This document shows positions 1 to 40,261 of a stretch of DNA of 44,370 nucleotides, in pieces; position 1 is the stretch's first letter, and every line of letters starts with the position of its first letter. Below the pieces are notes generated by a model, which searched no databases, was not told the DNA's origin, and saw only the letters and a program-made list of their open reading frames with translations. The position numbers and the translations under genes were made by a program. The stretch lies in the IMG/VR virus record IMGVR_UViG_3300045988_005581. The stretch is one strand, 5' to 3'. The stretch comes from a virus (taxonomy: Duplodnaviria > Heunggongvirae > Uroviricota > Caudoviricetes).

Positions 1-119
1 ATTTTTTTTATCTATTTTCTGTGATGACTAGTTGACTATTATCCTCGACCCTATTATATTTACTTCATCGACAACGAGAACGGAGTAGAGAGAAATGGGC
101 AACGTATCGACGATAGAAA
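1..119. repeat. Terminal duplication (copy 1), identical to 44252..44370
   Basis: Bases 1..119 match 44252..44370 exactly by eye; the junction lies in the T-run of the terminator at 44231..44260. Implies a unit length of 44,251 bp; the repeat touches both window edges so its true extent is unknown. Confidence 0.9.
32..60 (+). promoter_or_regulatory. sigma70-like promoter TTGACT-N17-TATATT
   Basis: TTGACT at 32-37, 17-bp spacer, TATATT at 55-60; about 35 nt upstream of the first ORF (ATG 95). Confidence 0.5.
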
Positions 120-6786: not shown

Positions 6787-7247
6787 TGATGGGCTTTTTC
6801 AAAGTAACTGATGTGCCGTCACGTCGCGTAGTCCAGTACGCTCGGGTGTCTGGCTCTGGTGAGAACGTGGTGTTTATTGAGGATGAAAGTGTACTGGGTA
6901 CACCGGTAGACGACATGCCGTTTGCGGATAAAACCGGCATTGCGCTGCCTGCGGCCGGTATGCTCTATGAGATTCCGTATCTGGCGGACGCAGGCGATGT
7001 GTATTTCTCTGTGCAACCAAAAGACGCTGAACTGGCCGACGGCAGCGCGACTATCACTGTCGAAGTTAAAGCAGGTGAAGCGCCGTATGCACTGACCTGG
7101 TACAAAGACGGTAAGGAAGTTGTCAACGCCCCGGAAGAGGCACTTTCCTTGACGGTTAACGCAGTGGGTGAATACTTCGTTAAAGTTACCGATGCTGATG
7201 GTGTAGAGGCTGTCAGTAAAGCTGCGAAGGTCACTAAGCCCGAATGA
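6786..7247 (+). CDS. Ig-like domain protein (possible head decoration)
   Basis: C-terminal segment YALTWYKDGKEVV...GEYFVKVTDADG resembles Ig-like/BIG-type domains; shares the motif with ORF 10559..10909. Confidence 0.6.
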   Translation: MMGFFKVTDVPSRRVVQYARVSGSGENVVFIEDESVLGTPVDDMPFADKTGIALPAAGMLYEIPYLADAGDVYFSVQPKDAELADGSATITVEVKAGEAPYALTWYKDGKEVVNAPEEALSLTVNAVGEYFVKVTDADGVEAVSKAAKVTKPE

Positions 7248-7251
7248 TAAA

Positions 7252-7278
7252 AGGCCCCATTAAGGGGCCTTAGTTTTC
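7252..7278. terminator. bidirectional intrinsic terminator
   Basis: AGGCCCC (7252-7258) / GGGGCCT (7264-7270) with 5-nt loop; T-runs on both strands. Lies between convergent genes. Confidence 0.65.
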
Positions 7279-7480
7279 AACGGAATCTTGTGTTTAAATC
7301 CTGCTCGTGGACGACCCTCAGAACAGTGTCATAATCCCCGTATCTTCCAGGTTCAAATACATCTAATGCCTTGTAAGCAGACATTGCGTCAGGGAAAACC
7401 TGCAGAACCTTTTTAACACGGCACAAGTCACCGTCGAACTCTTCATCGAACTCTTGAACTACTTCGCAAATTGCATACAT
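7277..7480 (-). CDS. hypothetical acidic protein (67 aa), solitary antisense gene
   Basis: ATG at 7480 (minus) preceded by GGGGGTG RBS and a sigma70-like promoter; terminated by the bidirectional terminator. Confidence 0.5.
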   Translation of the reverse strand: MYAICEVVQEFDEEFDGDLCRVKKVLQVFPDAMSAYKALDVFEPGRYGDYDTVLRVVHEQDLNTRFR

Positions 7481-7507
7481 TTTTCACCCCCTGCTTAAGT
7501 TAACTGA

Positions 7508-7536
7508 ATAGTACCCTATTATATTGGGGTGTGCAA
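7508..7536 (-). promoter_or_regulatory. sigma70-like promoter TTGCAC-N17-TACTAT (minus strand) with embedded dyad
   Basis: On the minus strand: TTGCAC (7531-7536), 17 bp, TACTAT (7508-7513); dyad AATAG-N4-CTATT at 7507-7520. About 25 bp upstream of the ATG at 7480. Confidence 0.5.
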
Positions 7537-7602
7537 ACTATTTATTTACTTATTCCAGTTATTCCGCTCAATTGTAAATGTTGGAATAAACTATTCGAAT
7601 AG

Positions 7603-7631
7603 TTGACTTTTCACTAAAAATATGATAAGCT
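7603..7631 (+). promoter_or_regulatory. promoter P_A: TTGACT-N17-TGnTAAGCT (extended -10)
   Basis: TTGACT 7603-7608, 17-bp spacer, TG 7623-7624, TAAGCT 7626-7631. Identical core promoter at 39890..39918. Preceded by the perfect palindrome ACTATTCGAATAGT (7590-7603). Confidence 0.6.
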
Positions 7632-7637
7632 CCACCT

Positions 7638-7838
7638 GAGCTTGTGAAGTATGAACAAGCGACCGCGGCGCGGGCAGGTAACGGAGCGGGACGTAAGTCC
7701 TGAGTGTAGTTACGCTGACGCGTTCGGAAGGGCCATACTCTATTGCTTGTGTAAAAAGTAACAGGTTTACTTAGATTACGCCGTTTCTATGTTTAAATGA
7801 TAAGGACTAGCGCCCTGCTTTAAGGCAGGGCTTTACTT
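7638..7838 (+). ncRNA. candidate short terminated transcript / structured leader (element A)
   Basis: Region between P_A and the terminator at 7812..7838; shares a 43-nt identical 5' arm (7626-7668) and a 23-nt identical 3' arm (7723-7745) with element B at 39913-40032. Not shown to be transcribed. Confidence 0.35.
7812..7838 (+). terminator. intrinsic terminator 18 nt upstream of the spanin start
   Basis: GCCCTGC (7812-7818) / GCAGGGC (7825-7831), loop TTTAAG, then TTTACTT. Confidence 0.6.
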
Positions 7839-7855
7839 ATCGAGAAAGGGGAAAC

Positions 7856-8242
7856 ATGAATCTTAAAGCAACCGTCGTAGCAGGAGCATGTTTCATCATC
7901 CTGGCTTACACACACGGCATTTATCAGTACCGCAGCGGCTGGCACGAAGGCCGCGCTAATCTCGTTTCGCAGCAACAGCAGAAAGCACAGGCCGAGTTAG
8001 CGAAGAAAACACAACGGCAGCAGCAAGATGAATCAAAGGCCGCCGCCGCTGACAACGAAGGCAAGACGAAATCAGAGGTGATCACCCGTGAAGTCGTTAA
8101 GTACATTAAAACTCCTGGTCGCAGCGTGTGCACTTTCGACCCTGAGCGCGTGCAGCTCAAGTCCCGCGCCGTCGCAAACGCCAATTCCATCCCCGGATAC
8201 GACGATGATGCAGCCGCCGTGCAAGCTGGCACCGCCGAGTAG
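7856..8242 (+). CDS. i-spanin (Rz-like inner-membrane spanin)
   Basis: N-terminal TM segment (VVAGACFIILAY), charged Gln/Ala/Lys-rich coiled-coil-like middle region, and an out-of-frame lipoprotein ORF overlapping its 3' half. Confidence 0.7.
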   Translation: MNLKATVVAGACFIILAYTHGIYQYRSGWHEGRANLVSQQQQKAQAELAKKTQRQQQDESKAAAADNEGKTKSEVITREVVKYIKTPGRSVCTFDPERVQLKSRAVANANSIPGYDDDAAAVQAGTAE

Positions 8243-8351
8243 CGACGCTGACGAGGATTTAGCTATCGACGTTCAGAACGCTGAATGCGTACGGCAGCTG
8301 CGGCTGAAAGTGTTCATGTTGCAGGATTACGTGAGGAATATTCTGGAATAG
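8088..8351 (+). CDS. o-spanin (Rz1-like outer-membrane lipoprotein), overlapped architecture
   Basis: GTG start at 8088 with GAGGTGA RBS; signal peptide plus lipobox LSAC; proline-rich mature region; +1-frame overlap with the i-spanin extending beyond its stop. Confidence 0.75.
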   Translation: MKSLSTLKLLVAACALSTLSACSSSPAPSQTPIPSPDTTMMQPPCKLAPPSSDADEDLAIDVQNAECVRQLRLKVFMLQDYVRNILE

Positions 8352-8433
8352 TTGCCTTGCATGTTGGAATAATTTATTCTTGACATGTAAATCCGGGTGG
8401 CCCGGGTTCCAACGTCCAGGGGACATACTGACT

Positions 8434-10187: not shown

Positions 10188-10203
10188 GGTTAAGATATAA
10201 TCG

Positions 10204-10230
10204 AGAGGGACTTCGGTCCCTCTTTTCATT
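10204..10230 (+). terminator. intrinsic terminator after the capsid gene
   Basis: AGAGGGA (10204-10210) / TCCCTCT (10217-10223), loop CTTCGG, then TTTTCATT. Confidence 0.6.
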
Positions 10231-14591: not shown

Positions 14592-14596
14592 AACTA

Positions 14597-14620
14597 AGGC
14601 CCCTTTCGGGGCCTTTTTCT
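14597..14620. terminator. bidirectional intrinsic terminator
   Basis: AGGCCCC (14597-14603) / GGGGCCT (14608-14614), loop TTTC, T-runs on both strands; separates the tail-shaft operon from the convergent minus-strand cassette. Confidence 0.7.
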
Positions 14621-17019: not shown

Positions 17020-17061
17020 AACATAACTCCTGATTTGAGATAACATCGTTGGTGTAAGTGA

Positions 17062-17090
17062 ATAGTACGCTATTATATCAGGGTGTGCAA
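17062..17090 (-). promoter_or_regulatory. sigma70-like promoter TTGCAC-N17-TACTAT (minus strand) with embedded dyad
   Basis: TTGCAC = 17085-17090, TACTAT = 17062-17067 on the minus strand; dyad AATAG-N4-CTATT 17061-17074; near-identical to the element at 7505-7540. Confidence 0.5.
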
Positions 17091-17197
17091 GTAGTATGTT
17101 AGAATAATTTTGCGCCTAGTGTCGCACACGAAAAGCGGGTGGTTCCCGTCTGGCGCATTTCCTTTAACCAGTAACCTCTTAACCAAAGGATTAAAGA

Positions 17198-17614
17198 ATG
17201 AAACTTTCTGATTTTTATTACGAAGCTGAAGCTGAAAAGGGTGCACGTATGCCGATACCATTAAAAGACGGTACCGATTCCGGGGAATGGCTTAATGTTG
17301 TTTCTCCTGAGGCAGACGTTGCCGTTAAGGCTATGCGCGCGTTCACCCTTGCATACCGGGCAGTGTTAGGGAAATTAAAACCGCTTCGTGATAAGTGCGA
17401 AGAGATGAAAGATTTCTCTGAATACAACCTGAAGATGGAAGACGCGGCGACGGACCTTAACCGTCAGTTAGCGGTTGAATTGGTTAACGGGTGGAGCCTT
17501 GACGACGAATTCAATAAAGAGAATCTGAACACACTCCTGACGCAATATAAACGACTCGCGGAACTTGTTGTTGTGTTTCATAACGAACAACTGCACCAGC
17601 TACAGGAAAAGTAG
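17198..17614 (+). CDS. tail assembly chaperone (G-like)
   Basis: 138 aa immediately upstream of the tape-measure gene, RBS AAGGA; the -1 frame stays open through its 3' end. Confidence 0.6.
   Translation: MKLSDFYYEAEAEKGARMPIPLKDGTDSGEWLNVVSPEADVAVKAMRAFTLAYRAVLGKLKPLRDKCEEMKDFSEYNLKMEDAATDLNRQLAVELVNGWSLDDEFNKENLNTLLTQYKRLAELVVVFHNEQLHQLQEK
17605..17611 (+). promoter_or_regulatory. putative -1 programmed ribosomal frameshift site (G GAA AAG)
   Basis: Heptamer GGAAAAG ends one codon before the chaperone stop (TAG 17612-17614); the -1 frame is open from 17584 to 17979. Analogous to the lambda G/GT site GGGAAAG. Confidence 0.35.
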
Positions 17615-17619
17615 ACGCG

Positions 17620-17979
17620 TTGCTCCAGTTCGCCCGTTGGAACTTCATAACCCGCCACAAACGGCGGGAATTTGACAGTATCGCCGATGGGCATAAAGCC
17701 GCGCTAATTGCTATGGGGGTTATGCAAGACGCGCCGGACGCAACGCAGGCCACTGGGCCGGAATGCCCCCCTGAACTACTAACCACATTTGAGAAGTACA
17801 GGGAAATTAAATTCACCCGCCGAGTGGACGACGACGGCATCAAGATGTACCCGCGCGAGCAATTACGATGGTCAGATTTAGTGGCGTACAGCACCGTTTC
17901 AGGCCAGAATATAGGGATGTTCGAATCTGACATCATCATGAGCTTAGACGCTATTTTCGAGGGTAGAAACGATGGCTGA
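17620..17979 (+). CDS. tail assembly chaperone frameshift extension (T-like)
   Basis: ORF in the -1 frame relative to 17198..17614, no convincing independent start (tool start is TTG); ends overlapping the tape-measure start. Confidence 0.45.
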   Translation: MLQFARWNFITRHKRREFDSIADGHKAALIAMGVMQDAPDATQATGPECPPELLTTFEKYREIKFTRRVDDDGIKMYPREQLRWSDLVAYSTVSGQNIGMFESDIIMSLDAIFEGRNDG

Positions 17980-20311
17980 TGTAGCTAGTTTAGTCGTAAA
18001 AGTATCAGAGCAAGGCGCGAAAGCCACATCAGACCGTCTTGATAATCTTTCAAAGTCCGCAAAAGTAGCGGGGGCCGCCGTAGCAGGCCTCGCTTCTATC
18101 GTAGCGGCTACCGCGTATAAAGCCGCCCAAGAACTAGTTGACTCACAGCGGCAACTGGACAAGATGTCCGCCAGTTTGAAGACCTTAACCGGAAGTACCC
18201 AAGGTGCTAAACAGGCGCTAAGTATCCTGCAAGATTTTGCACGCGACACCCCATACGGACTGGAGCAGGCGGTGGAAGGCTTCCGTAAGCTGGTGGCCCT
18301 TGGCCTTACCCCATCCGAGGAGGCGTTGCGGTCCTACGGCAATACCGCATCGGCTATGGGTAAGGACCTTAATCAGATGATTGAGGCGGTAGCCGACGCC
18401 AGTACGTTTGAGTTCGAACGCCTCAAAGAATTCGGCATCAAAGCCAAGCAGAACAAAACCGACGTAGAGTTTACGTTCCAGGGAACGACAACCGTAGTTA
18501 AGAAAAGCGCTGCCGATATTGAGCAGTATTTACTTAACATTGGTAACGTAAATTTTGCGGGGGCTATGGCTGACCAGGCCAACACCCTTAACGGCGCTAT
18601 CGCGAGTGCCAGTGACTCATGGTCGCAGCTAAAAATGACGCTTGCCACCAGTCTTGATGTTGGCGCACTTGCTGAACCTATCAGGTATATCGATGACTTG
18701 ATTCAGGAATTAAACGCGTCTGTTGCTTCCGGTGAATTAGCCGCTGAAATGCAGATGTGGGGGAACATCGCGTCGGAAGTAGGAAGCGCTATCGAGATGT
18801 CATTCGACGCTGCGTTTGGCTTTGTTGGCGATGCCATCAACGGGCTTAATGAACTGTGGGATTTCAGCAGCAAGAGTATTACGGATAGCGGAGAACAAAC
18901 GGCTACTACCATCGCTGAATCCGCCGCCGATGCGCTTGACTTCATCGCGGAAGAGTTCACCGCGATGGAGAGATTCTTTGAAGATATGGTTAAAGGCGCG
19001 CAGGACGCGGGCCGTCTTGTACGAGCCGCTTTTACCCCCGGGGAATCAGTAGACGTAGCTAAAAATATCAACTTCCAGCTTGGCCTGGCTTTGGATACCC
19101 AGCGCGATGTCGCCGACGTTACGCGTAAAAGTTTCCGCGAACAGGTAGAAGCTCAACAGGATATTGTAGCGTTAAAACGCGCGGCGTATGACATCGATAA
19201 GGAGTCCGCAAAAGCTGAGGGGTTAAACAAATTTAAGGTAACCGGAACTGGCGGCGGTTCTGACGATGACGGGTCAGCCGCAAAAGCCGCTAAGAAAGCG
19301 GCGGACGCGTTCGAGCGCCAGAAAAAAGCGGCGGAAGACTTCTACTATCAGTCAATCCATCTTAATGATGACGTATTTCAGAAAATAGAAGCTAACCAGG
19401 AAGAGCAACTGTCTAAGTTGCAGGACTTCTATAGCAATAAGCTTCTTAGCGACCAACAGTACGAAAACGCCAAGACGCAGATTATGTTATCCGCGGAACA
19501 GGCCCGCCAGGAAGAACTGGATAAGAAAAGGAAGGAGGCCCAGGAGAATCGGCAGAAAGGCGAGGATTTCATGGCTCAGATTATGGGTCAGAACGCCACC
19601 GAGCTTGAGCTTCTGGATATTCAGGAACAGCAGAAACTGGCAGTAGCCGATAAGTACCGTGAACAGGGTCTTATTAGCGAGAAGCAGTATCAGGCCACGC
19701 TTAACGCCATCAACGAGCAGTACGCAACCAAGCGAGCCGATGCAACGGCAACCGCTTTCGGCAACATGGCGTCCAATATTGGGTCCGCGTTAGGGGAGGC
19801 ATCCGGGGCTTATAAGGCGTTCGCTATTGTACAGGCCACTATCGCTACGTACACTGCAGCTATTGAGGCGTACAAATCTACAGCGGCTATCCCGGTTGTC
19901 GGGCCGTTCCTCGCACCGGTAGCCGCTGCCGCTGCCGTTGGCGCAGGCATGGCGCAGGTTTCCGCTATCCGGTCTGCGCGAGAGCAGGGCGGTCAGTTAT
20001 CCGCAGGGCAGGCATCGACCATCGCAGAACGTGGTAAACCAGAAGTTATCATGCCGGCTGGCGCATCTCGTGTACGAACTGCGCAGCAGATGAAAGAAAT
20101 TATGGGGCAAAACGGGTCTTCTTCCGGCCCGTCTAATGTTACCATCGTAAACAACACGAGTTCTCAAATCGGCAACGTATCCACTGAACAGGATGATGAA
20201 GGCCGTCTACGCATCATCATAGAAGAGCAAGTTGCTGCATCTTTGCAGAACAGCAACAGTAAGATTAGCAAGGCCCGCAAGGCCACAAGAAATGCGCCGG
20301 GGTTCAAATAA
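17972..20311 (+). CDS. tail tape measure protein
   Basis: 779 aa, longest gene of the tail block, Ala/Gln/Glu-rich with coiled-coil character and a hydrophobic Gly/Ala-rich segment (AAIPVVGPFLAPVAAAAAVGAGMA). Confidence 0.8.
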   Translation: MADVASLVVKVSEQGAKATSDRLDNLSKSAKVAGAAVAGLASIVAATAYKAAQELVDSQRQLDKMSASLKTLTGSTQGAKQALSILQDFARDTPYGLEQAVEGFRKLVALGLTPSEEALRSYGNTASAMGKDLNQMIEAVADASTFEFERLKEFGIKAKQNKTDVEFTFQGTTTVVKKSAADIEQYLLNIGNVNFAGAMADQANTLNGAIASASDSWSQLKMTLATSLDVGALAEPIRYIDDLIQELNASVASGELAAEMQMWGNIASEVGSAIEMSFDAAFGFVGDAINGLNELWDFSSKSITDSGEQTATTIAESAADALDFIAEEFTAMERFFEDMVKGAQDAGRLVRAAFTPGESVDVAKNINFQLGLALDTQRDVADVTRKSFREQVEAQQDIVALKRAAYDIDKESAKAEGLNKFKVTGTGGGSDDDGSAAKAAKKAADAFERQKKAAEDFYYQSIHLNDDVFQKIEANQEEQLSKLQDFYSNKLLSDQQYENAKTQIMLSAEQARQEELDKKRKEAQENRQKGEDFMAQIMGQNATELELLDIQEQQKLAVADKYREQGLISEKQYQATLNAINEQYATKRADATATAFGNMASNIGSALGEASGAYKAFAIVQATIATYTAAIEAYKSTAAIPVVGPFLAPVAAAAAVGAGMAQVSAIRSAREQGGQLSAGQASTIAERGKPEVIMPAGASRVRTAQQMKEIMGQNGSSSGPSNVTIVNNTSSQIGNVSTEQDDEGRLRIIIEEQVAASLQNSNSKISKARKATRNAPGFK

Positions 20312-21720
20312 TGACTGACTTATATTTCCCACGTAGCCTTAAGCCCATCGTATCAAAAGGCTACTCAATGACCAGACGTAACAACGTCTGGAGTGTTGAT
20401 TTAGCCGGTGGCGGGGTGCGTCAGGGCCGTGACACGTATTACGACGTGTTCCCTGTTAGCGTAACCCTGATTACATCCGCGCTTGGGCGGCAGGCGTTTC
20501 TGTCGTTCCTAGAAAAAGTAGACGGCGGTGCGTCAAGTTTCTGGATGGCTCACGATTTCGGCATGGGTATCGAGGACTATCAGGTCACCATCACGTCCAC
20601 CATCGCTGAGTCCACCGAAGACGGGATTAACTGGACGATTACTTTCACGGCAACCGCCGAGAAATCCCCGTTCCAGGACCTTGAGAACCAGTGCCTGATT
20701 AACAATCTGCCAGATTTGTATGGCTGTTACGGGGATTGTCTGGGTAGTTTCCTGAAAATATACGCGAACTATGAGACTACGTTCCCGCGCATCTGGAACA
20801 ATGAAGGGCCAGCCGGCTATCCACCGATCAACCTTCTGGCGCTCACGCTGGATAGTCGCATTGTGTATGACGGGCCGCGATTATTCTACATAGACAAAAC
20901 CGGCGACTTGGTCAGAACTGATGCGAACGAGTGGCCTCTTACGTTTATCGACGGGGTTGCAGTTGGGCGTGTACCACCTGAATTAGCCGCAACTAATCTA
21001 CTGTTCCGGTCAGGTCAAATGGATTACTCAGAATGGGTTAAATCTAGAGTTACTGTTGTAACGGACGCTGCGGACTTTCCCACTACGATAACCTCAGCCG
21101 AAAAAATAGTAGAGACAACGGATAATAACACGCACTTTATACAGCAGACCATAACTCCCGCCGGAGCGACGACTTACACATTCAGTGTGTTCCTTAAAGC
21201 AGAGGAGCGTTCGTCCGCTCGTGTTTATTTTGGTATTTTTGGCAGCCAGCAAGCAGCAAATATCGTAACTGTTGACATATCTGGGCAAACGATAACATCC
21301 GCTACAGACACTTCAAGATGTGGGATAATGCGAGTTAACGACGACTGGGTTCGGGTATACACGACAATAACGACCGTCGAAGCGCCAACAACAACAATAA
21401 ACGGCACCATCCAACTGTTATCACCGACAGGCAGCACCAGTTACGCCGGTGACGGGACCAGCGGTTTTTATGCATTTGGCGCACAAATGGAACTGGGCAG
21501 CAAACCAACATCATACATATCAACCCCGTCGGCAGCCCTGACTCGCGGCGCTGCAACAGCAAAAGTAGCAATGAATGGTGCAACAAGCATCGACATTACC
21601 TACTCCGACGGCTCTACCGTAAACGTGCCTGCAGTAGATAACTTCGCTGTTATCCCGCGGGCGGACTCCGCGTGGGGTAGTAAATATATCACTCGTATCG
21701 ACTTTAATGTGGACGGTTAA
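20311..21720 (+). CDS. minor tail protein (distal tail protein-like)
   Basis: 469 aa, ATGA-coupled to the tape-measure gene; assignment by position. Confidence 0.6.
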   Translation: MTDLYFPRSLKPIVSKGYSMTRRNNVWSVDLAGGGVRQGRDTYYDVFPVSVTLITSALGRQAFLSFLEKVDGGASSFWMAHDFGMGIEDYQVTITSTIAESTEDGINWTITFTATAEKSPFQDLENQCLINNLPDLYGCYGDCLGSFLKIYANYETTFPRIWNNEGPAGYPPINLLALTLDSRIVYDGPRLFYIDKTGDLVRTDANEWPLTFIDGVAVGRVPPELAATNLLFRSGQMDYSEWVKSRVTVVTDAADFPTTITSAEKIVETTDNNTHFIQQTITPAGATTYTFSVFLKAEERSSARVYFGIFGSQQAANIVTVDISGQTITSATDTSRCGIMRVNDDWVRVYTTITTVEAPTTTINGTIQLLSPTGSTSYAGDGTSGFYAFGAQMELGSKPTSYISTPSAALTRGAATAKVAMNGATSIDITYSDGSTVNVPAVDNFAVIPRADSAWGSKYITRIDFNVDG

Positions 21721-21723
21721 TTT

Positions 21724-22239
21724 ATGAGCCAGGAATCAGTAGAAGCCGCCTATCGCCGTAAGCTGGCCTCCAACCCCGACGGCGAGATGGACTACATCAC
21801 GTTGCAAATCAGCCACCCGTTGTTGTCGAAGACGTACTATCTTGTGCGCGGGCTACAGGAACTTACTGCAACACTGGAGACAGGCGAAATTATCACGTTC
21901 GAGCCAACCCCGATGGAGGCGTCGGGAGCCGCTAACAACAGTGATATGGACCAGACGACGACATTTACTTTACCGGATATTCTCAATCAACTTGACGATG
22001 AGATGGATAAAATCCCGATGAGCAATACCGAGTTGCCGAAGTTCGTCTTCCGCCGTTACGTCAGCACCGACCTGTCTTACCCGGCGGATGGCCCTGTCGT
22101 GTACGAGTTACAGGCCATCAACCAGGAGAAGGGCGAGTTCTCTGCGGATGTCGGTACACCTATGCTGAACCAACGAAGCACTGGTATACTGATGACACCT
22201 AAAGAGATACCGTTATTACGCGGCCTGTTGACTACATGA
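21724..22239 (+). CDS. minor tail protein
   Basis: 171 aa; position equivalent to lambda M/L-type minor tail proteins. Confidence 0.55.
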   Translation: MSQESVEAAYRRKLASNPDGEMDYITLQISHPLLSKTYYLVRGLQELTATLETGEIITFEPTPMEASGAANNSDMDQTTTFTLPDILNQLDDEMDKIPMSNTELPKFVFRRYVSTDLSYPADGPVVYELQAINQEKGEFSADVGTPMLNQRSTGILMTPKEIPLLRGLLTT

Positions 22240-22601
22240 ATATTAACGACTACACGGGAATACCTTACGACTTTCGCAAACGTAATTGCTGGCATCACGT
22301 GCGCATTGTCCGCGCGGATGCCGGGTTAGAAACCCCAGCGTTCGACGTTGCAAGCCCAACGGCGATTAACGAAGCGTTCGACGAAGGACATCGCAACACG
22401 AAGGGACTTACAAAAATTGATAAGCCTGAAAACTTCTGTGCGGTGCTTATGGGGTATCGCCGCGGCGGTCGTATCGTGTGGCACGCAGGAGTTTACTTCG
22501 ACGGGATGGTGAGCCATTGCGAGCTTGCGTCCCGTCAGGTACGGCTTGACAGGCTGGCGGATCTCAGAGACACGTACACGGAGATTGAATTTTGGCGATA
22601 A
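22236..22601 (+). CDS. tail assembly protein (possible NlpC/P60-like)
   Basis: 121 aa with a Cys...His...His pattern (NCWHHV ... VWHAGVYF ... SHCE) resembling lambda K-type tail assembly proteins; tentative. Confidence 0.45.
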   Translation: MNINDYTGIPYDFRKRNCWHHVRIVRADAGLETPAFDVASPTAINEAFDEGHRNTKGLTKIDKPENFCAVLMGYRRGGRIVWHAGVYFDGMVSHCELASRQVRLDRLADLRDTYTEIEFWR

Positions 22602-25159
22602 TCCTGCACTACACGCGAAACGCTGATGGCGCTTTCAACCGTACAAAACACGTCGGGATGCCGATGGAGTTTGTCGTTAACCGTATCCCGGGCGGCGTTC
22701 CGGTACGCGTCTATCTTGGCGAGATTGGTGATGATACTGATGTTACAGACGACTTCGACGCGCTCAAAGACGAGGACGCCGTGTACCACATTATTGAGGG
22801 CGCTGGCGGCGGCATTGGCGACGCCATCGGGAGTGTATTCAGTTTCATCCTTAAGCCAATCGCCAAATTGTTCGGGCTAAACACAGCGGCTAACGCTAAT
22901 TATTCCGCTACCAACAATCAGGCTACGTCGCCTAACAACAGTCTCACCGACCGCTCAAACAAGCCACGACCTTATGAGCGTTCCTATGATATCTGCGGGA
23001 CAGTGCAGACTATACCCAATGACCTGATGCAGACGTATAAGGTGTTTAACGCCACGGGGGCGCTTATTGAATATGCGTACTATGACGCCGGTCGAGGGTA
23101 TCTGCATATTGAGGAAGACGGTGTAACTGAGGCAGATACCCGAATCAGCGAGATAACTGGCTCGTCGGTGACGGTGTATTCTCCTTACACTTCGCCGAAT
23201 AACACCAGCACACCACAATTGCATATCGGCGACCCTATAGACCAGAAATTGTACGTTACATTTAAAAACGCCGATGTCGATGGCGCTGTTCTTCCCGCCC
23301 CTAATGATATCGCTATAGACGTGCAGGACTACACTGTCCAGCGGCAGGGAACAACCGGCGTTGTAGTAGGCGATGACGCTGGTTTCGATGAGTTTTTGGC
23401 GGTCGGGGACCTGGCATACTTCGATAACGTATATGCAGATACAACCCCAGGGTCTTTGGGTAATGAGGTTAACCTGGACGGGAGGTACACGGTTCTTTCT
23501 GTTAGTGAAACGACCCTTATTGTGGACGTCAGTACAAATCAATCAATATGGAACCAGCTAGGAACATCTGTATGGTTTATAGGTGAAGAGGGCAACCATC
23601 TTATAGGCCCGGCGGATACTTACGCGGCTTCCCTCTCTGAATGGGCGTACATCACCCGCGGAACCGTCGACCGTGTTGTAGCCAATGTGGCTGCCAGCAA
23701 CGGCATGTACAAATACAACGGCGACTATAACCGCGCTTCAGTGACAGTCGAACTGCAATACCAGATGGTAGATGAATTGAAACAGCCTGTAGGTGACATA
23801 TTTACCGTACGAGGAACCGTAACAGGCCGGAACACGGATTACACAGGGATTACTCTTTACGGAAGTTTACCAACTGCTTCCAGATTCCGCGCCCGTATGC
23901 GTCGTGTTTCGGACACCGATAAAGATTTTGAAGGTACTGTTAGCGACGAGGTTACTTTCACTAATCTGTATGGGCAGTCGCTGGACACAACCCCCCACTA
24001 CGGCAACCGTACTACCGTACACTGCGCCCGTAAACAAACCCCACGTGCAGCCGAGGTGTCCGAACCGGAACTGCGCATGATTGCAACCGAGATGTGCTAC
24101 AAATACTTAGGTAACGGCGTATTCGATACGGTAATGACACCGAACACTCAGGCCGTGCAGTCGCTAATCAGGCTGGCGCGTGACCCTGTGGTGGGTAATC
24201 TGGAACTGACAACGGCAAATATGGACAAGTTACTTGCCGTGCAGGAAGAAATTGAGTCGTATTTTGACAGTGAATTAGCCGGGCAGTTCTGCTACACATT
24301 CGACGACTACGACACAACCATGCAAGACATCGTTCAGACCATCGCGGAAGCCGTGTTTTGTACGGCATACCGTAAAGGTGCTGATATTATGCTGCGATTC
24401 GACCGTCCTGTTGCGGGGCCTGAGATGGTTTTCACCCACCGCAGCAAAACGACCGGTACGGAGAAATGGACGCGCACGTTCAACGATTCGACAACCTACG
24501 ATAGCCTGTCGTTCTCGTACATTGACCCGGATACAAACGTACAGGAGACGATTTATATCCCGGAAGAACTCGGCGCGAACACCGAGGAGTACGAATCGAA
24601 GGGTGTACGTAACTATCAGCAAGCGTACTGGCTGGCGTGGCGTCGCTACCAGCGCAACACGTTAAGTAAAGTTGTCGTAGAGTTCGAAGCTACCGAAGAA
24701 GGCGCTCTCGCTACTCCCGGCGGCGTAATCAGTGTGGTTAAAGGCTCGCGTATCGCGCCGCAGGATGGTTATGTTGTTGCCGTCAATGGCCTTACGCTGA
24801 CGCTGTCTCAGCCTGTTACGTTTACTCCTGGTGATGACCATTCCATCATTCTTAAGAAGCGCGACGGCTCTGTGCAGAGTATTTCTGTTATCAAAGGAAG
24901 CCACGACCGCGAAGTGATTATGCTCTCCGCGCCGGAGGAGGCAATCTACACGGGGAATAGCGCACTAAAAACTGAGTTTTCATTCGGCAACGAAGCAAGG
25001 CATAATGCTCAGAAGATAGTTGTTTCTTCAATCGACCCCGGCGACGACCGCACGGTCAAGATTACGGGCTACAACTATGACGACGGATTCTATAAATACG
25101 ACGGCGTCGCGCCATACGGCAGCAGCTTCTCCGACGGATTCAGCAATGGTTTTAATTAA
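22592..25159 (+). CDS. tail tip / central tail fibre protein (J-like)
   Basis: 855 aa, largest tail-tip gene, follows the K-like gene. Tool start is TTG; first in-frame ATGs at 22658 and 22664, so the start is uncertain. Confidence 0.7.
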   Translation: MAIILHYTRNADGAFNRTKHVGMPMEFVVNRIPGGVPVRVYLGEIGDDTDVTDDFDALKDEDAVYHIIEGAGGGIGDAIGSVFSFILKPIAKLFGLNTAANANYSATNNQATSPNNSLTDRSNKPRPYERSYDICGTVQTIPNDLMQTYKVFNATGALIEYAYYDAGRGYLHIEEDGVTEADTRISEITGSSVTVYSPYTSPNNTSTPQLHIGDPIDQKLYVTFKNADVDGAVLPAPNDIAIDVQDYTVQRQGTTGVVVGDDAGFDEFLAVGDLAYFDNVYADTTPGSLGNEVNLDGRYTVLSVSETTLIVDVSTNQSIWNQLGTSVWFIGEEGNHLIGPADTYAASLSEWAYITRGTVDRVVANVAASNGMYKYNGDYNRASVTVELQYQMVDELKQPVGDIFTVRGTVTGRNTDYTGITLYGSLPTASRFRARMRRVSDTDKDFEGTVSDEVTFTNLYGQSLDTTPHYGNRTTVHCARKQTPRAAEVSEPELRMIATEMCYKYLGNGVFDTVMTPNTQAVQSLIRLARDPVVGNLELTTANMDKLLAVQEEIESYFDSELAGQFCYTFDDYDTTMQDIVQTIAEAVFCTAYRKGADIMLRFDRPVAGPEMVFTHRSKTTGTEKWTRTFNDSTTYDSLSFSYIDPDTNVQETIYIPEELGANTEEYESKGVRNYQQAYWLAWRRYQRNTLSKVVVEFEATEEGALATPGGVISVVKGSRIAPQDGYVVAVNGLTLTLSQPVTFTPGDDHSIILKKRDGSVQSISVIKGSHDREVIMLSAPEEAIYTGNSALKTEFSFGNEARHNAQKIVVSSIDPGDDRTVKITGYNYDDGFYKYDGVAPYGSSFSDGFSNGFN

Positions 25160-25171
25160 AGAGGACTCTAT

Positions 25172-27157
25172 ATGTCAAGCGGATGCGGTGACGTTTTAAG
25201 CCTGGCGGATTTACAGACCGCCAAGAAACATCAGATTTTCGAGGCCGAGGTTATCACTGGCAAATCCTGCGGTGTAGCTACGGGTGCAGACATTGATTAC
25301 GCAACAAATCAGGTTACCGGGCAGACGCAGAAGACGCTTCCTGCCGTGTTGCGCGACGCGGGTTTTTCTCCTGTGTCATGGGATTTCTCCACAGGCGGCA
25401 CGTTAACCGTTAACGACCGGGACAAGGTGGTGTATGACCCTGTTAGCAAAACATGGTACTCGTACGCAGGTACGTTACCAGTTGTTGTCCCTGCATCGTT
25501 TAATCCAGTCGGTAACGCTAACTGGAAGCCGCAGACAGACCCAAATTTGCGTAATGATTTGGCGTCAAGTACCGCCGGTTTAGGGGCTTCACTGGTGTCT
25601 TTTTCCAACGGTAACACCGTTGAAACATTATCTGACGCGGAAGGTGCCAAGAACATAGGCAGTGGCGAAAGGAGTTTGCTTGCACGTAACAATGATATTA
25701 AGCATTCTGGCGACTTTTCTACCCTTCAAGCCGCGGTAGATGCGTCGTTAACTAAAAACGACTTAATTGTTTCTCCGGGTGAGTATACAGAAGCAATCAC
25801 TCTGGGTAGTAAGCAGATAAAAGGTGTAGGTGGTGCTGCAATATTAAAACCATCGGCAAACTATGCAAATACTGTACAGGTTAATTTATCCACCCCGCAC
25901 TGGCAGTTTCGACACAGCGGTGGTTTTGCCGTAGATGGTACAGGTACAACTGGGGCCGTAGGTATTAGTTTTGACCCGTCAGACCAATATTCCGGACGTC
26001 ATAATTTTAGTGATTTATACATCCACAACATCAACAAGGCCATTCAGAAGCCTTCCGGGAACATCGGTAATACATGGAGAAATATTGGGGTATCTACGTG
26101 TGATTGGGGGTATTACGCGATTAGTGGCTCAGAGATGCATTGCGGGGCCGATACCCTCTACAATATCCACTTCGACGGCATCTCCACCTATGCCGTCTAC
26201 CTAAACGGCACTGTCGATAACGGCGGGATAGGCGGATGGTGGCTTAAAGACTCCATTATTGAGGCTTCCGGAGGCGGCGGGATATATTTAAAAAGCAAAT
26301 CAGGTGACTGCCCTACATCTCCATGCGGGGTATCCAATGTATGGACGGACGCGATTGCAACATCATCGGCTGTTCAGGTAGACGGCGTGGCGCAAAAACC
26401 GCGAGTTCTCAAGTTGGTAGACACCGCGATATTCTTTGCTGAGTATTCTTATCTCAACAACATCGAGCTATCCAACTCCAACTTAGTAACTTATGGTTGC
26501 CGTTTTGACAACGCCGATGGTAATCAGGATATTGTAGTGGATGCACAAAGCACCATCGTAGCCCACGACGTGTATTTAAACGGCAGCTCTGGAAAGGACG
26601 TTATTGTAGAGTCTGTCGCGTCGCAATCCGCAACGATAGCCACTACAAACTTGTCTCTACGAGGAAATTTAACAAGGGGACGAGTGTTTAATACGCCGAC
26701 GGGGAATAAGTTAAAAGCTATCACATTTGACTCAGGTAGCTGTAATTTTTCTGGTAGCGGTACCGTTAACGGTTCGACTGTATCTGACGGACTTCACGCC
26801 GCTACATGTACCGAATTTTCATTCCCTGGGTCCGGTTTATATGAAATGGTAGCGTCAAGAACGACACTTACATCCGGTAGATGGTACGTGTGGGGCGTCA
26901 ACTCTCGCCTCCAATCAGGAACAGCAGATGTGAGTATAACGTCAGGTATTACTATGGGTAGCGTTTATACTAAGTCTGGTGAGTGGATTAGCACATTTGG
27001 GGTGGGTAAAGCTTCCGCTAACGGTACTGTAGGTCTGTACGTCTCTACTGGGGGAGGTTCAGGTGCTGTTATCAGATTTAGTGACTTCTTCATCGCTGAG
27101 TTTACGACGCAGGCTCAGGCTTTAGCTTTCGCTAACTCCCGAATGTCGTTGGCTTAA
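25172..27157 (+). CDS. tail fibre / tailspike with beta-helix-like receptor-binding domain
   Basis: 661 aa; RBS AAGAGGA; N-terminal anchor-like region followed by Gly/Asn/Ser/Thr/Val-rich repeats typical of right-handed beta-helix folds; last gene of the tail operon, followed by a terminator. Confidence 0.75.
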   Translation: MSSGCGDVLSLADLQTAKKHQIFEAEVITGKSCGVATGADIDYATNQVTGQTQKTLPAVLRDAGFSPVSWDFSTGGTLTVNDRDKVVYDPVSKTWYSYAGTLPVVVPASFNPVGNANWKPQTDPNLRNDLASSTAGLGASLVSFSNGNTVETLSDAEGAKNIGSGERSLLARNNDIKHSGDFSTLQAAVDASLTKNDLIVSPGEYTEAITLGSKQIKGVGGAAILKPSANYANTVQVNLSTPHWQFRHSGGFAVDGTGTTGAVGISFDPSDQYSGRHNFSDLYIHNINKAIQKPSGNIGNTWRNIGVSTCDWGYYAISGSEMHCGADTLYNIHFDGISTYAVYLNGTVDNGGIGGWWLKDSIIEASGGGGIYLKSKSGDCPTSPCGVSNVWTDAIATSSAVQVDGVAQKPRVLKLVDTAIFFAEYSYLNNIELSNSNLVTYGCRFDNADGNQDIVVDAQSTIVAHDVYLNGSSGKDVIVESVASQSATIATTNLSLRGNLTRGRVFNTPTGNKLKAITFDSGSCNFSGSGTVNGSTVSDGLHAATCTEFSFPGSGLYEMVASRTTLTSGRWYVWGVNSRLQSGTADVSITSGITMGSVYTKSGEWISTFGVGKASANGTVGLYVSTGGGSGAVIRFSDFFIAEFTTQAQALAFANSRMSLA

Positions 27158-30093: not shown

Positions 30094-30381
30094 CTAACTA
30101 TAATAGTTTGCTATTAGGTCGTCAACCTGTTTAAACGAACCAACGACAAAAACATTTGCACCGCGTTTACGCATCCGCTCATGCTCACGTAACTGGTGCG
30201 GGTCTGGCTTCGTGTTTTCGTCTTTCTTAACCTCGACAAACCAGATGATACCGCCAGGGAGAATTACCAGCAGGTCGGGAGCGCCGGAACGTCCTTCGTA
30301 GGAGAGCTTGCGAACGAGGCCGCCGAGGGCCTCGAATCGCTCTTTTGCGTATTTCTGTATGCGCCCCTCAGGCGTACTCAT
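30094..30381 (-). CDS. VRR-NUC domain nuclease
   Basis: 95 aa with PDLLVILP...VEVKK, the PD-(D/E)xK-type signature typical of VRR-NUC proteins. Confidence 0.7.
   Translation of the reverse strand: MSTPEGRIQKYAKERFEALGGLVRKLSYEGRSGAPDLLVILPGGIIWFVEVKKDENTKPDPHQLREHERMRKRGANVFVVGSFKQVDDLIANYYS
30097..30125 (-). promoter_or_regulatory. sigma70-like promoter TTGACG-N17-TATAGT (minus strand) with embedded dyad
   Basis: On the minus strand: TTGACG = 30120-30125, TATAGT = 30097-30102; dyad AATAG-N4-CTATT 30102-30115. Confidence 0.5.
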
Positions 30382-33505: not shown

Positions 33506-33534
33506 ACTATAATAGCTAACTATTCAGGTGTCAA
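33506..33534 (-). promoter_or_regulatory. sigma70-like promoter TTGACA-N17-TATAGT (minus strand) with embedded dyad
   Basis: On the minus strand: TTGACA = 33529-33534, TATAGT = 33506-33511; dyad AATAG-N4-CTATT 33511-33524. Confidence 0.55.
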
Positions 33535-36311: not shown

Positions 36312-36340
36312 ACTATAATAGCGAACTATTCACATGTCAA
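36312..36340 (-). promoter_or_regulatory. sigma70-like promoter TTGACA-N17-TATAGT (minus strand) with embedded dyad
   Basis: On the minus strand: TTGACA = 36335-36340, TATAGT = 36312-36317; dyad AATAG-N4-CTATT 36317-36330. A second imperfect dyad AATAT-N4-CTATT lies at 36361-36374. Confidence 0.55.
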
Positions 36341-39390: not shown

Positions 39391-39603
39391 TTACTTAACG
39401 CCCGCAATCCACGCACGCTCCGAAGCGTAGAAACGACACTTACTTAAAGCCTCGATTGGCATCTTAATAATGCGTGTCGGTTCCAACAAATGATTAGGCT
39501 TACATATTTCCGCATAGAATCCGCTGTCAGTAATTTCCGGCGCAAACTTAAACCGGTATTTAACTTTACAGTTTTCAAAGTAACAACCCATACGCCCAAT
39601 CAT
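39391..39603 (-). CDS. hypothetical protein (70 aa)
   Basis: ORF-track ORF, ATGA-coupled to the upstream HTH gene. Confidence 0.5.
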   Translation of the reverse strand: MIGRMGCYFENCKVKYRFKFAPEITDSGFYAEICKPNHLLEPTRIIKMPIEALSKCRFYASERAWIAGVK

Positions 39604-39782
39604 TTCACGTTCTCCTTAATCCATGCTTCAACTTTATTACGGTCAAATGTTCCTGGTAAACGGCGACCCATAACCTTAATACAGCAATCAGGGAATTTAC
39701 CGCTGCGCAACCAGTTATTAATTGTTTGACGTGTCACCCCGATACGTTCAGCCACTTCATTCTGTGTCATGTAATGCTGCAT
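39600..39782 (-). CDS. AlpA-like HTH DNA-binding protein
   Basis: MTQNEVAERIGVTRQTINNWLRSGKFP resembles AlpA/excisionase-type HTH proteins; ATG 39782 with AGGAG RBS (tool start 39854 upstream). First gene of the leftward module. Confidence 0.6.
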   Translation of the reverse strand: MQHYMTQNEVAERIGVTRQTINNWLRSGKFPDCCIKVMGRRLPGTFDRNKVEAWIKENVK

Positions 39783-39813
39783 TTTTATATCTCCTGTTTG
39801 TTTGGTGAAAACG

Positions 39814-39842
39814 AGTATAGGATAGCGTGAATGTAAAAGCAA
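39814..39842 (-). promoter_or_regulatory. candidate promoter TTGCTT-N17-TATACT (minus strand) for the leftward module
   Basis: On the minus strand: TTGCTT = 39837-39842, TATACT = 39814-39819; about 30 nt upstream of ATG 39782. Confidence 0.4.
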
Positions 39843-39889: not shown

Positions 39890-39918
39890 TTGACTTTTAC
39901 TAAGAAATGTGCTAAGCT
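39890..39918 (+). promoter_or_regulatory. promoter P_B: TTGACT-N17-TGnTAAGCT (extended -10)
   Basis: TTGACT 39890-39895, 17-bp spacer, TG 39910-39911, TAAGCT 39913-39918; same hexamers and spacing as P_A at 7603..7631. Confidence 0.6.
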
Positions 39919-39924
39919 CCACCT

Positions 39925-40160
39925 GAGCTTGTGAAGTATGAACAAGCGACCGCGGTGCGGCAGGAAACGGAGCGGTGCGTCAGCACTGAGTGTAGTGTCG
40001 CTGCCTGCATTCGGAAGGGCCATACTCTATTGTAAATCCCGTCTAAATAACCCAAGTCACTAATAATTAAAAGTTTCTATAGTTGCCGTAAGCAAGGTAG
40101 AGAGTACTTCACTCCGCTGGGGTGGGCTAAAGCCCACCCGCTGCGTTGCGTACTCTTTAA
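39925..40160 (+). ncRNA. candidate short terminated transcript / structured leader (element B)
   Basis: Paralogue of element A: identical 43-nt and 23-nt arms flanking a 54-nt core with about 12 substitutions and one indel; followed by GC hairpin GGTGGGC-TAAA-GCCCACC (40121-40138) and a U-rich stretch. Not shown to be transcribed. Confidence 0.35.
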
Positions 40161-40198: not shown

Positions 40199-40227
40199 TC
40201 GCACACCCCAACATAATAGGATACTAT
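40199..40227 (+). promoter_or_regulatory. sigma70-like promoter TCGCAC-N17-TACTAT with embedded dyad
   Basis: TCGCAC 40199-40204, TACTAT 40222-40227; dyad AATAG-N4-CTATT 40215-40228; same element as 7505-7540 in reverse orientation. Confidence 0.5.
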
Positions 40228-40261
40228 TCACTTATCGGAACGAGACAGAGGAGTGATGGTT

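Follow-up and report, generated by a model that had tools for sequence, protein, structure and literature searches.

A conserved, covarying structured RNA in the leader of the spanin genes of Guernseyvirinae phages

The spanin leader and its transcription signals

The window analysed here, meaning the whole stretch of 44,370 nucleotides, is the circular genome of a Kagunavirus of the subfamily Guernseyvirinae. Phages of this subfamily (Jerseyvirus, Kagunavirus) are among those most often isolated on Salmonella and E. coli, and are candidates for therapy and biocontrol. The spanin genes of the window are preceded by a module that consists, in order, of a promoter, a structured RNA core, a spacer and a terminator-like hairpin. 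The features of this locus are as follows.

7251..7271, no strand assigned: hairpin ending the upstream terminase-to-Hoc unit, found by scan; the equivalent site in Ent1 is annotated as a terminator
7552..7602, no strand assigned: conserved upstream DNA, a probable regulator-binding region, nearly invariant in 33 unique copy-1 leaders
7603..7631, plus strand: leader promoter (-35 TTGACT, 17-nt spacer, TGa, -10 TAAGCT), read directly and conserved
7638..7745, plus strand: structured RNA core, copy 1 (covariance model, covariation, concordant folds)
7651..7761, plus strand: 36-codon ORF, probably not a gene
7746..7811, plus strand: A+T-rich spacer, no less conserved than the core and 97-98% identical to Salmonella phage S123
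7812..7838, plus strand: terminator-like hairpin, GCCCUGCU-UUAA-GGCAGGGC and then UUUACUUAUC (scan, energy, covariation)
7856..8351, plus strand: spanin genes, Rz-like (7856-8242) and embedded Rz1-like (8088-8351), from the ORFs and the annotation of Rz-like spanins in relatives
8352..8380, plus strand: second promoter, TTGCCT-N17-TATTCT, preceded by GAATAG, between Rz1 and the scaffold gene

Judged by comparison of the deposited genomes, the order, spacing and position of the module are kept across the Guernseyvirinae. The Kagunavirus type is found directly 5' of the spanin genes in ~182 records, and the Jerseyvirus type, with a diverged core and from Salmonella phages, in the same position in ~269; the diverged form is recognised by the family covariance model (35.2 bits, E = 1e-6). 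This defines a conserved, covarying RNA element that heads the spanin and structural genes in ~450 deposited genomes. Between the window, which is an E. coli phage, and S123 the leader is 96-98% identical, whereas neighbouring genes reach 63-88%. The leader is inherited jointly with the 5' portion of the spanin gene, as the most conserved block, and conservation spans the entire 300-nt leader, beyond any element of ~70 nt. When IMG/VR was scanned with a degenerate two-block pattern, true matches were confined to Guernseyvirinae-like contigs of 40-45 kb; the remaining matches fell in G+C-rich coding sequence and were roughly as many as estimated for chance. In Serratia phage Smarc3 the intergenic region ahead of the spanin gene is structured too, yet gave no match to the covariance model. 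Our literature search did not link Jerseyvirus or Kagunavirus to any non-coding RNA or to antitermination, and an RNA-seq study of a Kagunavirus leaves the intergenic reads unanalysed (PMC12645636).

The leader promoter consists of TTGACT (7603-7608), TGa (7623-7625) and TAAGCT (7626-7631). The initial annotation had described a near-consensus extended -10 promoter. Its coordinates, 17-nt spacing and TG motif stand and are conserved, but "near-consensus" is too strong, as the -10 hexamer agrees with TATAAT at three of six positions (T1, A2 and T6), which is also why a consensus scan did not list it. TTGACT is present in 53 of 54 Kagunavirus-type loci and TGn and TAAGCT in all 54, and each of the 16 Jerseyvirus-type loci carries TAGACT or TAGATT, N17 and TGnTACGCT. 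The -10 is embedded, as had been described, in the inverted repeat AAGCTC/GAGCTT (7627-7643).

Variability per position was taken from the 33 unique copy-1 leaders. The nearly invariant DNA at 7552..7602 contains the inverted repeat TTATTCC...GGAATAA, and a perfect palindrome, CTATTCGAATAG, at 7590-7601 abuts the -35. Since ~85 bp 5' of the -35 are conserved, perfect palindrome included, the leader promoter is probably regulated rather than constitutive. A GAATAG-TTGNCT junction is common to this promoter and to the promoters at 8346-8357 and 26-37. From the conserved promoter elements, transcription would start near 7638.

The arrangement originally proposed, a promoter followed by a leader of ~200 nt, a hairpin (7812..7838) and then the spanin, holds, with 17 nt and not 18 between the end of the hairpin and the spanin ATG (7856). 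The stem (7812-7831) has eight pairs, six of them G-C, with the tail TTTACTTATC in the scan and a folding energy of -15.7 kcal/mol. It is, by the pattern of its changes, selected for pairing: pair 7816-7827 covaries within the Kagunavirus type and forms U-A, G-C and A-U across types, and the hairpin is retained even where the U-tract is poor. Termination here is predicted from the fold. In the window the U-tract is interrupted (UUUACUUAUC), and that of the Jerseyvirus form is poor (UUAGCGUAU), so termination at this hairpin may be weak or even absent.

A sequence scan found no promoter between 7838 and 7856, in agreement with the initial annotation. The wider claim, that no other rightward sigma70-like promoter precedes 7856, needs the qualification that two plus-strand promoter-like matches lie 5' of the leader promoter (7149-7176 and 7308-7335), both at chance level. 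Similarly, of the "bidirectional terminator at 7252..7278" the hairpin is present (7251-7271), but the scan scored it on the minus strand only, the plus-strand tail AGTTTTCA being one T under the threshold.

One claim did not survive, namely that ~6.7 kb of spanin, scaffold, capsid and tail-shaft genes depend on read-through. The scaffold and capsid genes have a conserved promoter of their own at 8352-8380. This promoter aligns with the leader promoter region; between the window, Ent1 and S123 its hexamers do not change but its spacer does. A promoter of the same GAATAG class, at 32-60, serves the terminase-to-Hoc unit. With this conserved promoter before the scaffold gene, and with no promoter between the hairpin and the spanin ATG, a clear need for read-through of the hairpin at 7812-7838 appears to be confined to the spanins. 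Further hairpins follow the capsid gene (10203-10224) and end the unit (14596-14615), and several terminators are annotated in the late operon of Ent1.

Structure and covariation of the RNA core

The core is ~108 nt long and begins 6 nt after TGnTAAGCT in both of its copies (the second is described below). It opens with a 5' hairpin, P1, in which 7640-7645 pair with 7655-7660 across a 9-nt loop; this is the leader stem-loop GCTTG/CAAGC of the initial annotation, present at 7640-7660 as the slightly longer inverted repeat GCTTGT/ACAAGC. A GA linker (7661-7662) leads to P2, a long irregular hairpin (7663-7727) with an apical hairpin at 7688-7701 and the internal loops GGAGC and GAGUGUA. The core ends in a single-stranded, purine-rich tail, AAGGGCCAUACUCUAUUG, at 7728-7745, i.e. 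GGAAGGGCC...CUAUUG.

The initial annotation had suggested covariance modelling across related phages as a check, and such modelling reveals the leader to be a conserved, covarying structured RNA. In 25 distinct variants, standard pairs occupy 95.4% of pair cells, against 86.3% in shuffled controls, and the covariation score is 0.270 against 0.102; in neither measure did any of 500 shuffles reach the observed value. Both sides change in nine pairs among these variants, slid controls score at most 0.045, and P2 in particular shows strong compensatory changes across the family. RNAalifold, run on an unedited MAFFT alignment, returned the same P1, P2 base and apical hairpin, and single-sequence folds of copy 1, copy 2 and the Golestan type agree on the P1/P2 architecture. 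The sequence of P1 varies between genera but the hairpin is always kept. G-U pairs in the core, and the A-to-G changes of P1, are tolerated on the plus strand only. These comparisons indicate that the core is a real RNA structure and specific to the plus strand.

Two other pairings were considered. A pseudoknot between the P1 loop and the tail (AGUAUG/CAUACU) would have six perfect pairs in the window; it was dropped because the central tail position is free to be C, G, A or U while the loop is fixed, and the Jerseyvirus type has no counterpart. A local hairpin, CCGC-GGY-GCGG, could form in place of the long-range base of P2, for example as CCGU/ACGG in L033. It is disfavoured, since the long-range helix shows C-G to U-A covariation (17 versus 8 sequences) and its pairing persists across insertions and deletions in Golestan-type variants. 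A co-transcriptional switch between the two forms is possible.

No family in Rfam 15 matched the region at gathering thresholds, and at E ≤ 10 there were only chance matches with E > 2; ARAGORN detected no tRNA or tmRNA in the region. The element of ~108 nt is a conserved, covarying RNA absent from Rfam 15.

A second copy at the early locus

The promoter and the 108 nt of the core recur at 39890-40032 with 89% identity (blastn), where the replication-gene and early operons diverge. The features found there are as follows.

39890..39918, plus strand: copy-2 promoter, TTGACT-N17-TGcTAAGCT, from the copy comparison
39925..40032, plus strand: structured RNA core, copy 2 (89% identity, family model, compensatory differences from copy 1)
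40119..40139, plus strand: G+C-rich hairpin (fold -22.2 kcal/mol), without a U-tract and unconvincing as a terminator
40199..40228, plus strand: proximal early promoter, TCGCAC-N17-TACTAT, with the palindromic operator AATAGGATACTATT, just before the gene at 40253

The family covariance model scores the two cores at 134.7 bits (copy 1) and 124.8 bits (copy 2). Homology between the copies starts exactly at the -35 and stops at CUAUUG, and the promoter and RNA core seem to behave as one unit. A distance of more than 200 nt, which includes another promoter, separates copy 2 from the next gene. The early-locus copy is missing in Jerseyvirus, K1H and Ent1, and many relatives are without a second copy. 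The locus nevertheless always carries a unit of promoter plus non-coding sequence, whose 5' modules are interchangeable. The early locus of Ent1 has a strong terminator but no RNA core, whereas an antiterminator model would predict the reverse. The idea of a lysis regulon, in which both copies would license lysis genes, is left as speculation because no terminator was found between the early and lysis genes in the window.

Possible functions of the leader

Our preferred explanation, which we hold tentatively, is that the region is a cis-acting leader that sets the level of read-through into the spanins, possibly in a put-like or a factor-dependent manner. It would be the promoter-proximal leader module of the late lysis and structural transcription unit. 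Host sigma-70 RNA polymerase would start at about G7638 from TTGACT-N17-TGaTAAGCT, probably under the control of the conserved upstream sites, and the first 108 nt would fold into the 5' hairpin P1, the long hairpin P2 and the purine-rich single-stranded tail. About 65 nt past the core the polymerase would reach the hairpin at 7812-7838, whose U-tract is weak and which ends 17 nt short of the spanin genes. The core is envisaged to act in cis on its own transcript and to set the passage of this hairpin and of later ones, either by binding the elongating polymerase directly, as put does, or by recruiting a phage or host factor by a nut-like or Q-like logic. Where termination does occur, a by-product of ~200 nt of RNA would be released. 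An effect of the core by direct anti-terminator pairing, between AGGGC in the tail and GCCCU in the 5' arm of the terminator, was rejected: only five pairs would form and covariation gives them no support. The tail does not follow the changes at the variable pair of the terminator, and the hairpin after copy 2 is unrelated.

The comparison with the lambda PR' and put systems, made in the initial annotation, is borne out in the order of promoter, leader, hairpin and spanin, in the conservation and in the duplication; put sequence similarity, a boxA and a Q or N homologue were not found. The order resembles that of lambda PR'-6S RNA-tR', where a sigma-70 promoter, a leader of ~200 nt and a hairpin precede the lysis, head and tail genes, but the hairpin here has a weak U-tract, poor in the Jerseyvirus type. 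GAGCTT at +1 to +6 has A2 and T6 and may be a -10-like pause-inducing element of the Q/AlpA type, whose position has been described (PMC9371919); the Jerseyvirus type repeats its -10, TACGCT, exactly, 3 nt downstream, at the corresponding position. So short a pattern often arises by chance. The leader promoter region offers no nameable Q-binding element, and the leader RNA is conserved and covarying, which Q systems do not require. Homologues of Q, 21Q, 82Q, N or AlpA were not found in the annotated Ent1 genome or among the neighbouring small ORFs of the window, where the one Pfam match was a generic HTH_17 protein. The product of this divergent HTH gene was dismissed as a candidate AlpA-like factor, with no AlpA match among solved structures; the genome may still encode a factor of an unrecognised kind. 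The occurrence of paired RNA elements after two promoters, each with a hairpin, recalls lambda nut and N; however, the 9-nt loop of P1 is not a pentaloop of the boxB type, no N-like protein was identified, and boxA (CGCUCUUA) is absent from 7638-7855, where the nearest sequence is ACUCUAUUG, with a freely variable second position.

The put RNA of HK022 acts in cis through the beta' zinc-binding domain of RNA polymerase, which then resists terminators with no help from protein factors. The putL and putR elements consist of two adjacent stem-loops directly after a strong promoter and form two paralogous copies (PMC9378689). The present core is likewise a cis-encoded structured RNA of two adjacent stem-loops, directly 3' of a sigma-70 promoter, with two paralogous copies in the window genome, 5' of terminators and long operons. 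It differs in its length (~108 nt versus ~70 nt), in having a long irregular hairpin as P2, in residing in a virulent siphovirus and not a lambdoid phage, and in that the second copy is missing in many relatives. Homology to put was dismissed: putL from HK022 shared only 7-mers with the two cores in blastn (E > 0.7), and the family covariance model found no match in the HK022 PL-PR region. The core could still be an independently arisen, RNA-only processive antiterminator, a functional analogue of put, though we regard this specific form as unlikely. Such an RNA would ride the E. coli or Salmonella RNA polymerase from the leader promoter and let only transcripts from its own promoter pass the hairpins before and inside the lysis and structural genes, and its duplication at the early locus in Kagunavirus would do the same for the rightward operon, whose last genes encode holin and endolysin. 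If the core does control read-through, it would be only the second RNA-based antitermination family known in enterobacterial phages, and a compact part for synthetic transcription control.

The alternative raised in the initial annotation, a stand-alone small RNA of ~200 nt, is possible, if on the unlikely side. Such an RNA would have its targets in trans, either a protein or RNAs of the host or the phage, and any transcription that leaks on into the spanins would be incidental. The unit has its own strong promoter, a 5' hairpin of the RNA-stabilising type, a conserved purine-rich tail and a 3' hairpin, and conservation covers all 200 nt and not a short element. An identical leader works in phages of E. 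coli and Salmonella, pointing to a conserved host partner, and the early-locus unit of Ent1 ends in a strong terminator, much like a small-RNA gene. A second copy would then raise the dosage or bring expression forward. However, the unit is always co-oriented with, and immediately 5' of, the genes it precedes, and the spanins are without any other promoter. The U-tail of the terminator is also poor for a small RNA of the Hfq type, and the conserved tail has no complementary target elsewhere in the phage genome. The RNA core has no chromosomal homologue in 5,426 complete E. coli genomes, a result on which host origin or mimicry was also dismissed. As a compact non-coding unit in a phage intergenic region, the leader resembles phage and prophage small RNAs and the int-alpA motif (RF02996); unlike those, it has no Rfam match at any threshold, and no trans target was identified. 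If this reading were correct, the RNA would be a highly conserved and probably abundant product of virulent phages, with a host target to find.

Less probable again is that the core works within the 5' untranslated region of the spanin mRNA, controlling stability, processing or translation and leaving transcription alone, for example by protection from RNase E, as an RNase III site, or as a ribosome decoy or standby site through the Shine-Dalgarno-like GGAAGG or GGGAGG of the tail. P1 begins within 3 nt of the predicted 5' end and is always a hairpin despite the sequence differences between genera, and the tail is similar to AAAGGGGA, the ribosome-binding site of the spanin. The most conserved block, inherited as a whole, joins the leader to the 5' portion of the spanin gene, and the hairpin at 7812-7831 is kept even with a poor U-tract. 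On the other hand, this hairpin does not overlap the ribosome-binding site, copy 2 is followed by a further promoter and its next gene is over 200 nt away, and P2 is more elaborate, and covaries more, than a stabiliser would need.

It is very improbable that the transcript activates or primes DNA replication in the style of T4 oriF or ColE1 RNA II, with the structured RNA leading into an A+T-rich unwinding region: A+T-rich sequence does follow both cores, and copy 2 sits between the replication-gene and early operons, the usual place of an origin, but the universally conserved copy is the one within the structural gene cluster, the early-locus copy is dispensable (K1H, Ent1), and no iterons or other origin features were seen.

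To the reading of 7651-7761 as a gene for a 36-residue protein, so annotated (hypothetical protein) in Bas75 and other records, we give almost no credence, because the frame is not conserved among relatives: it ranges from 9 to 41 codons across variants with internal frameshifts, the two copies read the central part of the peptide in different frames, the ATG is missing in the Jerseyvirus type, and the substitutions keep base pairing instead. Annotation pipelines mislabel part of the RNA element as a hypothetical protein.

Elsewhere in the window genome, a match to the int-alpA RNA motif (RF02996) corresponds to the leader of the tail operon.

A structured leader RNA upstream of the spanin genes

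The window represents the complete genome of a Kagunavirus, subfamily Guernseyvirinae, and is 99.7% identical to Escherichia phage vB_EcoS-phiEc3 across the queried 701-bp stretch (7200-7900). Its ends are identical over 120 nt (1-120 = 44251-44370), and the genome is therefore circular or circularly permuted, with a length of ~44,250 bp. The leader sits in a gap of 375 nt, with a small ORF on the minus strand (7277-7480) on one side and the gene for the Rz-like spanin (7856) on the other; scaffold, capsid and tail-shaft genes follow the spanin region, ending at 14591. The slot directly upstream (7277-7480, minus strand) is a mosaic insertion site, holding a small unknown ORF in the window, an adenine methyltransferase or genes annotated as sliding clamp or RusA elsewhere, and nothing in phage Ent1. 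The promoter, the GCTTGT/ACAAGC arms at 7640-7660 and the terminator-like hairpin of the initial annotation are all present in the sequence:

7603-7631, plus strand: leader promoter, read from the sequence, with -35 TTGACT (7603-7608), 17-nt spacer, TGa and -10 TAAGCT (7626-7631)
7640-7645 paired with 7655-7660: helix P1, arms GCTTGT/ACAAGC, 9-nt loop
7661-7662: linker, GA
7663-7727: P2, with internal loops GGAGC and GAGUGUA and apical hairpin 7688-7701
7728-7745: single-stranded tail AAGGGCCAUACUCUAUUG
7746-7811: conserved A+T-rich spacer
7812-7838, plus strand: terminator-like hairpin (arms 7812-7831), listed by the consensus scan, with a weak U-tract in its tail TTTACTTATC

Self-comparison of the window places a second copy of 7626-7745 at 39913-40032 (89% identity). 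The similarity begins exactly at the -35 and ends at CUAUUG. The same ~108-nt segment, predicted to be transcribed, follows a promoter of the same form:

39890-39918, plus strand: copy-2 promoter, TTGACT-N17-TGcTAAGCT

Between the two copies and among relatives, the core differs by compensatory changes. The apical hairpin occurs as GGGAC/GUCCU, GGUGC/GCACU, GGGGC/GCCCU, CGGAC/GUCCG or CACGU/ACGUG, a P2 base pair alternates between C-G (17 sequences) and U-A (8), and the helix GUAAC/GUUAC is replaced by GAAAC/GUUUC or CGAG/CUCG. In an alignment of 25 distinct variants, registered by hand and fitted by eye and thus biased in favour of structure, 95.4% of pairs in the 29-pair structure are standard, vs 86.3% in shuffles (reached by 0/500); the covariation score is 0.270, vs 0.102 in shuffles (0/500) and at most 0.045 in slid controls, and nine pairs changed on both sides. 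As independent checks, RNAalifold on an unedited MAFFT alignment recovers P1, the base of P2 and the apical hairpin, and the same architecture results when copy 1, copy 2 and the Golestan type, a variant group of the core, are each folded alone to minimum energy. The G-U pairs and the A-to-G changes in the P1 3' arm are acceptable on the plus strand only, consistent with the promoter direction. The core is a structured RNA and is not protein-coding.

Of 182 phage records with the Kagunavirus-type leader, 102 are Escherichia phages, 65 Salmonella phages and the rest others; a diverged form occupies the same position in 269 more records, almost all Salmonella Jerseyvirus. The latter has a different P1 hairpin (ACGCU-UUC-AGCGU), keeps the P2 base and tail (ACCGCGGUGCGG...GCAUUCGGAAGGGCC...CUAUAUUG), and has compensatory changes of its own in both apical hairpin and terminator stem. 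A covariance model trained on 15 sequences of the Kagunavirus type picks out two copies in the window and no more (134.7 and 124.8 bits) and matches the Ent1 leader (35.2 bits, E = 1e-6), whereas the put region of HK022, the early locus of Ent1 and a Serratia relative give no match. True matches of a degenerate pattern scan of IMG/VR were confined to 40-45 kb contigs of Guernseyvirinae; neither 5,426 complete E. coli genomes nor any Rfam family gave a match. The leader is also the locally best-conserved segment, 96-98% identical between the window and Salmonella phage S123 where adjacent genes are at 63-88%. The observation is confirmed and far from chance. The element is a structured leader RNA specific to this family, with a conserved promoter of its own and a conserved downstream hairpin, undescribed in the literature and databases searched.

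A 36-codon ORF within the core was rejected as a gene; across variants its length ranges from 9 to 41 codons, the two copies differ by a frameshift, and the Jerseyvirus form lacks the ATG. In Serratia phage Smarc3, a relative at greater distance, the region before the spanin genes (1805-2029) contains a long hairpin of another kind (GGUUAUGCUCG...CGAGCAUACC) and carries the annotation of a 45-codon ORF. It has the short string GCCCUAGCG in common with the Jerseyvirus leader and may be a very diverged homologue below model detection.

Promoters, hairpin and the extent of read-through

Among public phages and viral contigs, TTGACT is present in 53 of 54 Kagunavirus-type loci and TGn and TAAGCT in all 54, while all 16 Jerseyvirus-type loci have TAGACT or TAGATT, N17 and TGnTACGCT. 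This conservation supports the promoter. "Near-consensus", as it had been called, was too strong, since TAAGCT and TATAAT agree at just three positions; for the same reason the consensus scan missed it.

The U-tract of the 7812-7838 hairpin is interrupted in the window and poor in Jerseyvirus (UUAGCGUAU), yet the stem is maintained through compensatory change. In 33 unique copy-1 leaders, nearly all positions from ~7552 to 7870 are fixed, the main exception being the covarying terminator pair 7816-7827. An upstream hairpin (7251-7271) qualifies as a terminator in the scan on the minus strand only; the equivalent site is annotated as a plus-strand terminator in Ent1.

In the initial annotation, ~6.7 kb of genes appeared to need read-through of the 7812-7838 hairpin. 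No promoter fits the 17-nt stretch separating it from the spanin start. The sequence separating Rz1 from the scaffold gene can be aligned with the region of the leader promoter and carries a conserved promoter of its own, preceded by GAATAG, the same motif that abuts the leader -35. Only the spanins, then, clearly depend on passing the hairpin. Two further promoters belong to this class:

8352-8380, plus strand: scaffold promoter, TTGCCT-N17-TATTCT; hexamers identical across the window, Ent1 and S123, spacer different
26-60, plus strand: third promoter, GACTAG-TTGACT-N17-TATATT, serving the terminase-to-Hoc unit, after terminator 44232-44258

At the window junction, that strong terminator (stem CCCGGC/GCCGGG, then T8) is followed by a promoter at 44283-44311, the same as 32-60.

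On one side of copy 2 lies a helix-turn-helix gene in divergent orientation (39600-39854, minus strand), on the other are the rightward early genes with their own proximal promoter (40199-40228); the hairpin after copy 2 has no U-tract. A strong rightward promoter and a 200-270-nt non-coding unit 5' of the proximal early promoter are constant in the window (39856-40252), phage K1H (430-800) and Ent1 (37430-37950). The 3' part of this unit is common (GUUUCUAUAGUUGCCGUAAG... and a hairpin) and its 5' module interchangeable, being the copy-2 core in the window and unrelated RNA in K1H and Ent1. Ent1, without the core at this locus, is the one where a strong terminator closes the unit.

Possible roles of the leader

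The second promoter, the poor U-tract, the pattern at copy 2 and the early locus, and a conserved upstream palindrome all weaken the reading as a gate for 6.7 kb. We lean, tentatively, towards a cis-acting leader that would set how much transcription continues into the spanin genes and past them, whether by the RNA alone or with a factor. Transcription would start at the leader promoter, some of it would terminate at the 7812-7838 hairpin, and the core would affect how much reads through. A stand-alone RNA of ~200 nt is somewhat less likely, and a stability or translation element of the spanin message is improbable.

The leader has partial parallels in known systems. The put RNAs are ~70 nt with two stem-loops (PMC9378689); the core resembles them in its two adjacent stem-loops, promoter-proximal position and two paralogous copies, but is longer and has no sequence relation to put. 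Q and AlpA systems depend on three parts: a binding element within the promoter, a pause element resembling a -10 close to +1, and a terminator (PMC9371919). The hexamer at the predicted +1 to +6 of the leader has the two key positions of a putative pause element, and in the Jerseyvirus type an exact repeat of the -10 lies 3 nt downstream of it; the annotated Ent1 genome and the neighbouring small ORFs yielded no homologue of Q or AlpA. Unlike nut, the leader has no boxA.

Operator-like palindromes and other leaders

About 85 bp 5' of the leader -35 are conserved and contain the perfect palindrome CTATTCGAATAG, which suggests that the leader promoter is regulated. The 14-bp palindrome AATAG-N4-CTATT occurs seven times in the window (0.26 expected):

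7507-7520, 17061-17074, 30102-30115, 33511-33524, 36317-36330, 40215-40228, 41350-41363

Four of the sites overlap the -10 in promoters of the TTGCAC-N17-TACTAT type, located 25-50 nt upstream of gene starts (7480 and 17018, minus strand; 40253 and 41393, plus strand). The palindrome looks like the operator of a phage regulator, for which the early HTH protein (39600-39854) is a candidate. GA(A/C)TAG, which corresponds to the AATAG half-site of this operator, directly abuts the TTGNCT -35 of three rightward promoters (26-60, 7590-7631 and 8346-8380, for packaging, spanin and scaffold), with the full palindrome CTATTCGAATAG in the leader promoter. Given this common half-site, a single protein might act as repressor at early promoters and as activator at late ones.

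Two more promoter-proximal structures were noted. The predicted transcript from the scaffold promoter starts with a hairpin conserved between genera (CCGGGUGGCCCGG, 8387-8410), annotated as a terminator in Ent1. At 17109-17173 (plus strand), a match to the Rfam int-alpA RNA motif (RF02996) scores 36.6 bits, where the gathering score is 35.8, and heads the tail operon (17198-27157) of what is a virulent phage. With a U-rich run behind it, the outer stem of this match resembles a terminator, and the genome thus has a second structured leader close to a promoter.
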